The translations under genes were made by a program, and so were the position numbers. The notes beneath the pieces were generated by a model, which was not told where the DNA came from, ran no database searches, and saw only the letters and a list, made by a program, of their open reading frames with translations. 64,000 nucleotides of DNA from Anolis carolinensis (taxonomy: Eukaryota). The stretch covers positions 14,615,636 through 14,679,635 of the forward strand of contig NC_085841.1 in the NCBI RefSeq assembly GCF_035594765.1, read 5' to 3'. Positions 12,318 through 16,590 of this stretch are shown in pieces; the stretch's first letter is position 1; each line of letters begins with the position of its first letter.

Positions 12318-12614
12318 TTAAACATCTCCAATAAGCAACACGAGGTCACTAATTGGTCTGTCCAGGACAGACATTTTGTCCTTACTATGAGTCTTTACTT
12401 GAACTTTTCTAACCTTACCGTCAGGGCAAGGAAAGGTCTTTAGTATAATGCCCATAGGCCAGGCATAGCGGGGCAAGTCTTTGTCCTTTGGCAACACAAG
12501 GTTTCCCACCTTGGCATTGTCCTTTGGGGTTTGCCAGAGTCTTCTGGTTGGAAGCTGGCTTAAGTATTCGGCCTTCCACCTCTTCCAGAAGTGGTTGGCT
12601 AAGGTCTGCACATG
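12318..12614 (-). pseudogene. Out-of-frame integrase C-terminal domain (DUF5641-like) of the BEL element
   Basis: HVQTLANHFWKRWKAEYLSQL...KVGNLVL...WPMGII...DGKVRKVQVKT...RPISDLVLL is the canonical Pao integrase tail, shifted out of the main ORF frame by a deletion at ~12615. Confidence 0.9.
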
Positions 12615-15600
12615 CAAAATTGGTGCCACAGTCCGATCGAATTGACTTAATTGGCCCTCTGAGGGCTATGAACCTTTTTAATGCGTTTAAAAATGATGAA
12701 GTGTCCATCCCTTCTATGACTTCTATATGGACAGCTCGTATTACTAAACAAGTAAACAAAACTGCCCACCTCTTGTTATTTACAACACCACCCCTGGTTT
12801 TCCTAGTGACAACCTCCCAAGGACCAAACACATCGATTCCCACATGGGAAAAGGGTGGGTCTGTCAAAGTCCTATCCTGAGGTAGTTCTGCCATCAACTG
12901 ACTTTGACAGTTTCGCCTAAGGCGCCTGCATTTAACACATTTGAAAATACAACTGTTGACCAACCTTTTGGCATTAACTACCCACAGACCTTCATTTCTA
13001 AGGGCTGCCTCAGTCAGAGTTCTACCCTGATGATGGATCCTTTCATGGTGATGCCGAACGAGCAGCAATGCAGTGTGACTATTAGGGGGTATGATGATGG
13101 GGTTTTTTATGCACGCCTTGAGTTTAGCTTTGGCTAACCTTCCTCCAACTCTCAAAATACCCTCCTTGCCTAGAAATGGGTTTAACTCACGCAAGAAACT
13201 CCGACTGGGGGTGTCAAGCCCTTGTTCTAACCTGGCTATTTCTAGACTAAACTCATGCCTCTGAACTGACCTGAATATTACTCCCTTAGCCTTCAACATG
13301 TCCTGAACTTGCAAAGGCTGACTATCTTTGCAGACTAAGCGATGTATAAGCCTAGCAACTGCTCTAAGAAGACTGTGCCACTCCGAAAAACGTTCAAAAC
13401 GGTGTGGTTCCAGGCAAGATCTTTGGCCCATCTTGATTTCTGTGGTTGATTTGCAGGCTTTCACCTCTGCACTTCGTGAGACTTGAGCATTCATAATGTC
13501 CGAAAACCTTTGCTCATCTTTCGAGAGCGCTGTGGCTTCGTCTCTCTCAGAGACTTTGAAGATGGAGGAATACTCTGGAGTTATTGCTTGGCAGTAGACC
13601 GAGATATGACTTAGGCAACTGCGCACAAGTGTAGGACGTCCACCTTTAAGTACCTGTGCTTGATTGGAGTCCAACGACGATGGTGGGTGCATCTTGTTTA
13701 TGCACACTGGGCCTATGACTGTCCAGCCTAATGGCAATTGTTGTGCGATAGGTGCACCTGGAGGTCCTTTAACTTGGTCGTTCACACAGAACAAGCTCGG
13801 GCAGTCCGAGCCAAGCAAAAGGGCAATGTCCACATCTGGCCGAAAGGCTGGTATAGCATTCTTTAACCGTCGCAAATGTGGATGAGCCTCCACAACTTCT
13901 CTAGTTACAATTTGTTTTCTGTTCCGAGGGATGGAGGAACACTCAATCAGGTCTGGCAACTTGAACTGTCTCTTCTGGTCGCAAGAGGAGACAACAAAGC
14001 CAGATGCTATGCGACCCTGCAACTTCTTTTTTCCTGCACACGTAGTCATAGTGTAGTCGACCATCTTGGTTTTAAGGTCAAACATGCGGAAGAACTCTGG
14101 AGTAGCCAGGGAGGCGTCGCTCTGTGAATCCAGGGCCACATAGAGTCTCTTTCTAAGCCAAGGGCTCTTGGCTGGATATACATCCGCTAGGCAGATAGGA
14201 TGACAAACTCTGTACTGGTGCGAGTCAGAACACAGCTCTGTACAGGCGACTGCTGAAACTTCCACCTGCATCTCTGGTGCGGCTGGCTTGTCGGTGTCTT
14301 CGACTGCTGACTTTTCTTTTGGTGAAGCGTTCTCTTTGGGGTGGGAGATGATATTGGAGTTGTGCATTGCGGTGCAATGCTTGAGGCTGTTGCATTTCTC
14401 ACACTTGATGTTTTCTTTGCAGTTGGATGCAAAGTGTGGAGTTGCTCCACAGCATCTAAAGCAGATTCCCTGCTTTTGAACTAGCTGTTGCCTTTCTTTG
14501 TATGTCTTTCTACTAAACTCCCTGCAGTTGGCCAAGCTGTGAGGCTTTTGGTGAATAGGGCAAAGCAACTCTTTTACCTCCGACCTGGGTTCGTCAGTCT
14601 TGAGTTGAGTTTCGACTGCCTTTACGCTGACAGGTCTATTGGCCTCTCTAGGTGGTTTCTTGTCCACTTCAGGTGCCTTCTCTGGCTGGGTCCCTTGGTA
14701 TAAGGTGGGGAGGCCCGTCTGTGGATCATTCCTTTCTCTGGCTGCCCTGGTGATGAACTGGACCAAATGAGAAAATGGAGGGTATGCCTGGGAGTGGGCC
14801 TCCTTGTAGTTGAAGACCTCCTGTCCCCAGCGTTCTTGCAAAGTGAAGGGCAGCTTGGTCAAGATCTGCCTCTGGGACAGGTGCTGATCGAGGCACTTCA
14901 AACCGGGCAGTTCTGGATTCTCCTTGGCCGACTCTAATTCCGCAAGGAGATCGCTGAGGTCCCACAAGAGTTTGAAGTCTTTGAGTTTTAAAGCTGGGAA
15001 CCTTTGGAGCTTGTCCATAAGAGATGCTTCAATCTCTGTGCTGGCCCCATACCTCTGCTGCAACCTGGCCCAGGCCTTTTCCAGGGCTTTGTCGGGATCG
15101 GCTACGTGGGCTGCGTAGATCTTCTTAACTTGTGAGGATGAGGCTGGGCCCAACCATGCAGCCAGAAGAGTCAGTTCTTCCTCAGGCAATAACTTTAAGT
15201 CTCTGATTGCTCTCTGGAAGGTGGCCTTCCAGAGAAGAAATTCCTCAGGCTTGTCCGAAAACTTTTCGACACCCTTGTCCTTAAGATCTCTTCTGGGGCT
15301 TCTGATGATGGAGACAAGCTGGGACTCTGGCGTCGAAGGGAACAATTGAGGAGTTTGCTGTTGTGGAGTGGACTCCCACCGTGTACCTTGCGTCAACCTT
15401 TGGCCTCTTGGAGGGATGACATCGACCACTGACGAATCGATGGTTCCCCGTGCAGCTGTCTGTAGGGGCCAACTAGCACTCGGCCTTGAGGCCCTGATTG
15501 ACTGACCTAGGGTTTTAGCAGGAGGCACAGGTAGCTCGAGCAAGGGTGAGCTCCCCGCTATGACGCTCTGCTCTGCAGGAAATTCAAAAGTGACTTTGGG

Positions 15601-16590
15601 GCCCTGCTCTGGGTAAGGAGAGAAGTCTCCCTGTTCCTCATCCGAAAACTGGCTGTTCATGCTGCCAAGGTGCGCAAACACTTTGGCAGAAGGATCCTGT
15701 ATTGGTAACTGGCTTACATTTTCTTCTGTGAGTGGCTCACTTAGGGCCTTGGCCAAAGTCTCAGCCCTTACCCTTTTGGCTGCGGCATCCATCTTTATTC
15801 TAAGCATCTCTATACGAGCCTGTTCTATTTGCATTTCGCTTTGTCTACGGGCCTGTTCTATTTGCAGTCGTTGCTCTTCTTCTTTAAAGGGAAGGGTGAG
15901 ATCAGCTGCCTTAGCATCAGCCTCCGCCCCCGCTACCTTGCTCTTTAGCTCCAGACGTGCAGCCTCCTTAATGTGCAAGGCAGCTAGGGAAGAGATGGCA
16001 CTCCCAGCAGCAGAAGACTTGCTAGAGTGGCTATGTTTAGATGATGCACACTCCCTTAGTTTAGATACCTGGCTAGAGCGGTTGGACTTAAGACTAAGTG
16101 CCACAGCAGGTGATTTTAAAAGATTGGTCTCATGGCTGCATAAGGAAGACTGATTTCCTTTTGGCTCAGACCTTAGATTAACAGGTGGAGAACTAAATTC
16201 CAAGGCATCTAGAATTGCCCTCACCTTATTTTCTTTCTCATTAGTGTCAGCTAAGACACTCACTATTTCTAACTCTGAATCCTTGGCGTTAATGCGCTCG
16301 AGGACCTGGACTATCTTAGACACCAAACCCCTCCAGAGACCAAAGGTCTCTTCAAGGTCTGTCTGTAATATGGATGGCACCCTTGTAATACCCAAGCTCT
16401 CAATTCTGTCCATCAATGTTACAATTCGCTCCCATGCCGAACCTAACCTCACATGGAGGAGCTCCTTTTCATCTATTAGATGGGCTAGCATCTTGGCTGA
16501 AGGGTGCTTTATCCTTTGGGGCCTTTCATTCCTACTTTCAGCCTCAGAAGGAGGTATACCATCTGTATCGTCTTGAAATTGCATAGACAT
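12421..16590 (-). CDS. BEL/Pao Gag-protease-(deltaRT/RH)-truncated integrase polyprotein, 1389 aa
   Basis: Capsid-like KFSDKPEEFLLWKATF (DUF1759-type); knuckles CPIH..H..C, CFRC..H..C, CEKC..H..H; protease ALDSQS; integrase HHERIHH..CVKC, GIDVFGP, SDCGTNF; no RT YxDD motif and no RNase H. Confidence 0.92.
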   Translation of the reverse strand: MSMQFQDDTDGIPPSEAESRNERPQRIKHPSAKMLAHLIDEKELLHVRLGSAWERIVTLMDRIESLGITRVPSILQTDLEETFGLWRGLVSKIVQVLERINAKDSELEIVSVLADTNEKENKVRAILDALEFSSPPVNLRSEPKGNQSSLCSHETNLLKSPAVALSLKSNRSSQVSKLRECASSKHSHSSKSSAAGSAISSLAALHIKEAARLELKSKVAGAEADAKAADLTLPFKEEEQRLQIEQARRQSEMQIEQARIEMLRIKMDAAAKRVRAETLAKALSEPLTEENVSQLPIQDPSAKVFAHLGSMNSQFSDEEQGDFSPYPEQGPKVTFEFPAEQSVIAGSSPLLELPVPPAKTLGQSIRASRPSASWPLQTAARGTIDSSVVDVIPPRGQRLTQGTRWESTPQQQTPQLFPSTPESQLVSIIRSPRRDLKDKGVEKFSDKPEEFLLWKATFQRAIRDLKLLPEEELTLLAAWLGPASSSQVKKIYAAHVADPDKALEKAWARLQQRYGASTEIEASLMDKLQRFPALKLKDFKLLWDLSDLLAELESAKENPELPGLKCLDQHLSQRQILTKLPFTLQERWGQEVFNYKEAHSQAYPPFSHLVQFITRAARERNDPQTGLPTLYQGTQPEKAPEVDKKPPREANRPVSVKAVETQLKTDEPRSEVKELLCPIHQKPHSLANCREFSRKTYKERQQLVQKQGICFRCCGATPHFASNCKENIKCEKCNSLKHCTAMHNSNIISHPKENASPKEKSAVEDTDKPAAPEMQVEVSAVACTELCSDSHQYRVCHPICLADVYPAKSPWLRKRLYVALDSQSDASLATPEFFRMFDLKTKMVDYTMTTCAGKKKLQGRIASGFVVSSCDQKRQFKLPDLIECSSIPRNRKQIVTREVVEAHPHLRRLKNAIPAFRPDVDIALLLGSDCPSLFCVNDQVKGPPGAPIAQQLPLGWTVIGPVCINKMHPPSSLDSNQAQVLKGGRPTLVRSCLSHISVYCQAITPEYSSIFKVSERDEATALSKDEQRFSDIMNAQVSRSAEVKACKSTTEIKMGQRSCLEPHRFERFSEWHSLLRAVARLIHRLVCKDSQPLQVQDMLKAKGVIFRSVQRHEFSLEIARLEQGLDTPSRSFLRELNPFLGKEGILRVGGRLAKAKLKACIKNPIIIPPNSHTALLLVRHHHERIHHQGRTLTEAALRNEGLWVVNAKRLVNSCIFKCVKCRRLRRNCQSQLMAELPQDRTLTDPPFSHVGIDVFGPWEVVTRKTRGGVVNNKRWAVLFTCLVIRAVHIEVIEGMDTSSFLNALKRFIALRGPIKSIRSDCGTNFACADLSQPLLEEVEGRILKPASNQKTLANPKGQCQGGKPCVAKGQRLAPLCLAYGHYTKDLSLP

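Follow-up and report, generated by a model that had tools for sequence, protein, structure and literature searches.

An Anolis carolinensis BEL/Pao retrotransposon lacking reverse transcriptase and RNase H: probable mobilisation in trans and a candidate self-primer

The element described here is a BEL/Pao long terminal repeat (LTR) retrotransposon on the minus strand, at positions 11513-18123, of a 64,000-nt window of the Anolis carolinensis genome (GCF_035594765.1, contig NC_085841.1, 14,615,636-14,679,635; the window is the whole stretch analysed and all coordinates are relative to it). Its closest described counterparts are summarised as far as the accessible parts of the respective sources go. 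The mouse intracisternal A-particle (IAP) element IΔ1, a betaretrovirus-like endogenous retrovirus, carries an in-frame internal deletion and a long fusion open reading frame (ORF) that acts in cis, depends on helpers and outnumbers complete elements among new insertions (PMC6466679). The wheat elements RLG_Sabrina_SA, RLG_WHAM and RLG_Quinta are "semi-autonomous" and of high copy number, encode Gag or Gag-protease without reverse transcriptase (RT), and recombine by template switching (PMC9744471, PMC11302176). In Tf1/sushi elements the primer-binding site (PBS) lies directly after the 5' LTR and is complementary to a stretch of about 10 nt of that LTR, and in Tf1 the cut that frees the primer after base 11 requires RNase H (PMC7175516, PMC6317226); such self-priming has been described for Ty3/gypsy elements of the Tf1/sushi and Tcn1 types and proposed for the copia element TAR (PMC6317226, PMC7175516). 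Finally, the NC-1 family of the Sinbad superfamily, from Anolis itself, was reported with 397 LTR-bounded elements, the top copy number across 62 genomes, in a survey whose inclusion rule required one domain only (de la Chaux and Wagner 2011, PMC3118150); among the domains published for it are an RT bearing YVDD and an RNase H bearing DAS.

The window element belongs to the same host and family as NC-1. It represents a recent insertion from a BEL/Pao (Sinbad) subfamily that is not autonomous and that is probably mobilised in trans, brings its own Gag-protease and primes its own reverse transcription. Like IAP IΔ1 it combines an in-frame internal deletion with a long fusion ORF and dependence on a helper; however, IΔ1 has lost 1.9 kb spanning parts of gag and pol, whereas the Anolis element keeps the whole Gag-protease, loses exactly RT and RNase H, and is a BEL/Pao element without a tRNA-type (TGG) primer site. 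The wheat elements differ in being plant Ty3/gypsy elements that also lack integrase, whereas one Anolis subfamily and comparable forms from a frog and cichlids keep a full DDE integrase. As in both of these semi-autonomous types, the same deletion recurs at many independent loci, judged from proteins and contigs (flanks and target-site duplications (TSDs) of the other copies are not in view). As in Tf1, a PBS adjoining the LTR is complementary to the element's own LTR and covaries with it, with the difference that the primer cut would need the RNase H of a helper. The accessible parts of the NC-1 account mention neither a loss of RT and RNase H in most copies nor a self-complementary PBS (PMC3118150). 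No report of BEL/Pao self-priming or of an RT-less Anolis BEL/Pao element was found in the literature searched, mostly without subscription journals; Repbase and Dfam lay outside this search and may list a non-autonomous Anolis form.

The element has a single ORF (16590..12421, minus strand, 1389 aa), the same 1389-codon open frame from which a first-pass annotation, made from the window sequence, had proposed that RT and RNase H were lost in frame. This proposal is borne out: none of the YxDD, DAS and NPAD motifs is present in the window ORF, and in BLAST comparisons with full-length relatives the ORF aligns as two pieces, split at residues ~1040/1041-1064. Among 116 relatives the missing span could be measured in 77, and in the 70 of these that carry an RT motif its median is 563 aa (10-90%: 559-564). 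The junction, previously drawn at about 13465-13476, exists and is placed here at 13464-13473; we call it junction A. On both sides of it, as read by eye from contigs that leave the deleted form at the junction, stands a 6-7-nt repeat coding for Pro-Glu in the same frame, which suggests that the deletion arose by a template switch at the repeat during reverse transcription. An in-frame repeat together with a template switch would yield a clean frame with no selection required at its birth. The features of the element are as follows:

17408..18123, minus strand: 5' LTR, 716 bp, TG...CA, an exact match to the 3' LTR
17838..17847, minus strand: LTR stretch complementary to the PBS by pairing (LTR positions 277-286), candidate self-primer should the transcript begin here
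17398..17407, minus strand: PBS adjoining the 5' LTR, no tRNA-type start, 10/10 (13/14) bases pairing with the LTR stretch
16591..17397, minus strand: 5' leader of ~0.8 kb containing a 38-nt repeat and three tandem units of 26 nt, varying from copy to copy
14362..16590, minus strand: Gag, with a coiled-coil/repeat region and a capsid-like DUF1759 region (aa 444-551), from Pfam and motifs
14562-14362, minus strand: triple Cys-His box within Gag, from its motif
13700..14190, minus strand: aspartic protease region (approximate boundaries), with the catalytic Asp motif at 14130-14119, a second LLG motif and clade-invariant residues kept
13464..13473, minus strand: junction A, where ~563 codons (RT and RNase H) are missing in frame, at the 6-7-nt same-frame repeat
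12615..13463, minus strand: post-RNase H linker and N-terminal half of integrase, HHCC at 13053-12922, catalytic Asp residues at ~12834 and ~12633
12607..12614, minus strand: second deletion, which takes ~126 codons from the integrase core (the catalytic Glu among them) and shifts the frame, common to other copies
12321..12606, minus strand: integrase tail with the DUF5641 region, shifted out of frame; ORF stop at 12421
12229..12245, minus strand: polypurine tract adjoining the 3' LTR
11513..12228, minus strand: 3' LTR, 716 bp, TG...CA, with AATAAA at 11650-11645
11508..11512, plus strand: left TSD TTATT, at the end of an (ATT)n tail
18124..18128, plus strand: right TSD TTATT

Junction A is not peculiar to this locus. 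In the Anolis protein cluster, 14 of whose 16 members were read, none of the 14 shows an RT or RNase H motif; nine carry junction A (9 LOC ids on 5 contigs; one of the nine could be the window locus in a newer assembly), and five (P0004, P0127-P0130) carry junction B, a different and smaller in-frame loss. In sequencing run X10 a contig with junction A and no mismatch reaches a depth of 4355.6, against 8.78 for a contig of the unique flank (~500x), and in X8 the values are 5863.6 and 10.4 (~560x); these ratios are rough, given one flank contig per run and a contig depth that is not a true copy number. They suggest some 500 junction-A copies, near the 397 LTR-bounded NC-1 elements published (PMC3118150). 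Where junction A is absent, the branches reach depths of ~210-375 for a divergent type and, derived by subtraction, ~1090 (X10) and ~1590 (X8) on the type-B side. On these depths, with a share among branches of ~77% in X10 and ~75% in X8, junction A is likely present in about three quarters of the family. Contigs of X17 and X6 also bridge it, at depths of 138.6 and 80.2; that these two runs are RNA is a guess, and they are not taken as proof of expression. In X8, a DNA run, one contig stops ~4 nt beyond junction B (window 13446-13464), as a branch there would produce.

The first-pass annotation had named two circumstances that would refute its reading, a junction unique to this locus and an assembly collapse removing RT and RNase H, and neither holds. 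Nine annotated proteins and contigs of all four runs share junction A, which rules out a one-off deletion, and it is bridged by contigs of X10, X17 and X6 as well as present in nine proteins of a chromosome-scale assembly, which rules out collapse; an X8 contig bridges it too, with 28 letters on the short side, 3 under the 31-letter rule. A splice origin of the junction was also rejected, as no GT-AG pair gives the observed join. Each of the four possible pairings of a junction type with a nucleocapsid type is found among the copies, whose protease and linker types are likewise mixed, a mosaicism from which we infer repeated co-packaging and template switching. The copies differ by 2-13% in protein yet keep long frames. 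One element ORF copy, P0122, is annotated as a teashirt homolog 2 isoform, which might reflect a chimeric transcript or a mis-annotation.

An element that has neither RT nor RNase H yet bears identical LTRs was copied by enzymes from elsewhere. In 4/4 runs, contigs branch from the junction into RT-side sequence; in X6 one such contig extends 698 nt beyond the junction on the RT side, where the type-B deleted form would allow 348 nt, and on the side of RNase H another reaches 466 nt, likewise beyond the type-B limit. These branches, together with the published RT and RNase H domains of NC-1, indicate that RT-bearing family members exist. The earlier suggestion that RT, RNase H and integrase are borrowed from a helper thus gains support, and the family almost certainly includes a non-autonomous subfamily mobilised in trans, with complete helpers likely rarer than deleted copies.

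The title of the first-pass annotation, which spoke of a Gag-protease-integrase fusion, overstates the integrase of the window copy: Gag, protease and the N-terminal half of integrase are indeed present, but the integrase is frameshifted and without its catalytic Glu. By comparison with the sister protein P0003, residues 1333-1458 are gone at ~12607-12614, and with them the Glu that completes the DDE triad. The ORF ends in ~61 codons of out-of-frame sequence, while the integrase tail is read in another frame to 12321; the stop has shifted only ~100 nt upstream. The same break is found in P0001, P0121 and P0123, whereas P0002, P0003, P0124 and P0126 retain an undamaged integrase core alongside junction A, and P0122 and P0125, also with junction A, terminate ahead of the break site. 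A contig with the integrase deletion reaches a depth of 2923.8 in X10. The abundance of this integrase-less subfamily implies that integrase is unnecessary in cis.

The PBS, which lacks a TGG start and is by that criterion, the only one in the screen, not of the tRNA type, is complementary in its first 10 bases (13/14) to LTR positions 277-286 (window 17838-17847); 10 of 5149 internal 10-mers match equally well. The comparison was extended to those of 85 related loci whose 5' LTR end could be fixed, ten in all: direct repeats defined it in six (L005, L006, L008, L025, L035, L081), the sister L034 supplied it for L036, and in L002, L004 and L037 it was placed by eye on terminal inverted repeats. 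Loci whose end could not be fixed, L021 among them, were excluded. With the window included, the PBS of 8 of 11 elements, counted from its first base, pairs with the element's own LTR over at least 8 bases; of 110 cross pairs 4 do so, and none of 100000 permutations reached the observed pairing sum. The signal is lost 5 bases into the leader, and the window with the six repeat-defined loci alone gives 6/7. PBS and LTR stretch differ between families and change together on both sides. Folding computations give helix probabilities of 0.81-1.0, conditional on a transcript start at LTR 273-277. The self-priming that the first-pass annotation had entertained as a condition thereby receives support from pairing with matched changes, and we consider it quite likely that the element primes its own reverse transcription. 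In L005, L008, L025, L035, L037 and L081 the candidate primer stretch is preceded by a pyrimidine tract and CA(G), which resembles an initiator or a splice acceptor. In a more distant relative (L021:97) the candidate after the LTR begins with TGG, like a tRNA-type PBS, and the mode of priming may thus vary within BEL/Pao.

Selection on the retained proteins was assessed by counting distinct substitutions at the protein level in five doubly deleted Anolis copies, a conserved site being one kept in 90% of 23 relatives. In Gag-protease 1 of 34 substitutions falls on conserved sites (129 of 604 sites; Fisher p=0.004), and in the integrase stump 10 of 46 (83 of 262 sites; p=0.11), of which 7 are common to two copies. 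Such a pattern would be expected if Gag-protease were under selection and the integrase stump were decaying, and we lean, with reserve, towards the function of Gag-protease being under selection.

Comparable forms appear outside Anolis, where 4 of 116 matches lack both the RT and the RNase H motif. In the frog Anomaloglossus a 35-member cluster (15 listed) consists mostly of 1487-aa Gag-protease-integrase proteins from many chromosomes. All 16 frog copies examined (P0159, P0099, P0300-P0313) share one in-frame junction without RT and RNase H, and complete relatives of 1938 aa are 96-98% alike to them. Another such junction is found in 9 of 13 members of a cichlid cluster from five species (P0089, P0131-P0142). 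Both forms keep the full DDE integrase in frame; both are gene models, and protein searches reveal in-frame forms only. As the break points differ among Anolis, frog and cichlids, the deletions probably had separate origins. Further single RT-less cases occur among 149 new representatives, mostly in one-member clusters. Among the 85 related loci, 48 span both sides and three of these have no RT cover (L013, L039, L079); L039 and L079 were dropped as permuted contigs, and the metagenome contig L013:167-3853 shows a collinear in-frame loss, in DNA, that takes RT and RNase H together with the beginning of integrase and part of its zinc finger, with one stop. A search of viral contigs gave 17 pattern matches and no relative. 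In a fish locus a full isoform and an in-frame isoform skipping RT and RNase H are annotated side by side (P0067 versus P0070), possibly a spliced Gag-protease-integrase message or an annotation artefact.

These data can be ordered into the following sequence of events: 1) ~563 codons were lost in frame at the Pro-Glu-coding repeat, a template switch being the probable cause. 2) Junction A spread and was recombined onto varied Gag, protease and integrase backgrounds, presumably through several rounds of co-packaging with other RNAs of the family. 3) A later deletion disabled integrase, and the subfamily that carries it is also abundant. 4) Gag-protease may have been kept by favouring the packaging of its own RNA or by adding capsid to mixed particles. 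5) The first ~10 nt of the transcript would fold onto the PBS, and the RNase H of the helper would cut the primer out, as in Tf1.

Several observations weigh against parts of this account. A full-length Anolis polyprotein is absent among the best 120 of 840 matches and no intact helper locus was seen, nor was any of 157 candidate shorter Anolis proteins with RT-side sequence significant. Recombination with helper lineages can import variation that has already been filtered, such that the conservation of Gag-protease might be partly borrowed, and the proteins compared are gene models biased towards open frames. The 16 RT-less frog copies show no depletion at conserved sites in either Gag-protease (9/42, p=1.0) or integrase (12/30, p=0.30); most of their changes are private, yet some at conserved sites are common to 7-9 copies. 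As to priming, 3 of the 11 elements pair over 5-6 bases only, and the LTR has no TATAAA. The frog counts also bear on an alternative that we regard as unlikely while giving it some weight, namely that what is kept is translation itself: a frame open to near the 3' end would spare the RNA from nonsense-mediated decay or deliver it to particles during translation, Gag-protease being incidental and the helper supplying all proteins. Nonsense-mediated decay penalises long 3' tails, and the second deletion destroys integrase yet moves the stop only ~100 nt; likewise the frog frame stays open over 1487 codons although conserved residues are not spared, and work on IAP IΔ1 emphasises translation as a determinant (PMC6466679, in the parts accessible). 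Against it, the doubly deleted Anolis subfamily spares conserved sites of Gag-protease and not those of the integrase stump.

It might also be argued that the deleted form is a neutral passenger acting purely in cis, whose frame is open owing to the in-frame repeat and a young burst and whose success stems from shortness or expression. The same-frame repeat indeed accounts for the open frame, identical LTRs mean youth, and the parallel cases came from protein searches blind to out-of-frame forms; but long frames persist despite 2-13% protein divergence and mosaicism, and every one of the amplified junctions (Anolis A, frog and cichlid, plus Anolis B) is in frame, which leaves this explanation improbable. 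Least probable, in our estimate, is that the RT-less form began as a reverse-transcribed spliced subgenomic mRNA of the complete element, serving to make extra Gag from its one ORF, with the match between LTR and PBS reflecting splice-like signals. The RT-skipping in-frame isoform beside the full one at the fish locus would suit it, as would the PBS of several relatives, which begins like a splice donor, the LTR stretch following a pyrimidine tract and CAG, and the Lys-Val context of junction B, which could suit splice sites; against it, junction A sits on a direct repeat with no fitting GT-AG, and PBS and LTR stretch co-vary, including in L036, which has no GT. The reading that we prefer thus remains that of a trans-mobilised subfamily with its own Gag-protease and self-primer.

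If so, the largest BEL/Pao family of the 62-genome survey is apparently mostly RT-less, and annotation based on RT would overlook or misread such copies. The nested series of complete elements, RT-less elements with integrase and RT-less elements without it dissects the requirements in cis, integrase being dispensable and Gag-protease seemingly kept, and the recurrence in frog and cichlids opens the supply of Gag in single-ORF elements to comparative testing. Self-priming in BEL/Pao, if true, would bring the Tf1/sushi mechanism to a third superfamily and imply processing of the primer in trans. A broader proposal, which we offer tentatively and hold to be rather doubtful as a whole, is that Sinbad BEL/Pao elements form a tRNA-independent, self-priming one-frame lineage that repeatedly sheds in-frame Gag-protease(-integrase) partners without RT and RNase H (twice in the lizard, and in frog and cichlids), which would outnumber complete elements by supplying surplus capsid, their primer being cut by helper RNase H in trans.

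The assignment of the element to BEL/Pao (Sinbad) follows from several features. The LTRs are of the TG...CA type with a short TSD, and Gag contains a triple Cys-His box, a named feature of BEL/Pao/Sinbad (PMC554778, as far as accessible). The order of the remaining domains agrees with a single Gag-protease-RT-RNase H-integrase ORF, and relatives show the full order; RT (YxDD), RNase H and a DDE integrase, which mark an autonomous LTR retrotransposon, are lacking in the window copy. The ORF matches the Pfam models DUF1759, rve and integrase zinc finger, each below the curated cut-off, and has no match to RT, Peptidase_A17 or DUF5641; Peptidase_A17, the stretch with the RNase H DAS motif, is matched by full-length relatives, and DUF5641 by P0003. 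Among the best 120 of 840 protein matches the top ones are from Anolis carolinensis (89-97%), followed by polyproteins of fish, frog, tick and mollusc at ~50%. The Sinbad placement itself is taken from the published NC-1 assignment together with a by-eye agreement of the window integrase with the NC-1 domain as far as the second deletion (PMC3118150, in the parts accessible).

The leader preceding the ORF measures 817 nt. Of the termini that had been annotated as intact, the exact LTRs, the purine tract and the TTATT repeats are confirmed; the PBS lacks a TGG start, and the TSD is weak evidence taken alone because the target falls inside an (ATT)n tail. TSDs of BEL/Pao elements are ~5 bp long. 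None of the contig joints shown revealed an empty insertion site. The identical LTRs indicate a young element, yet at ~12 positions in 12637-17346 the window differs from nearly all contigs, which may stem from a parent copy that is itself rare, or from errors of assembly. The repeat tail ending in (ATT)n (window 11400-11512) was the insertion target of the element, and fragments of LINE reading frames, presumably CR1-like by their motifs, lie at window 32353-33692 and 37391-38410.

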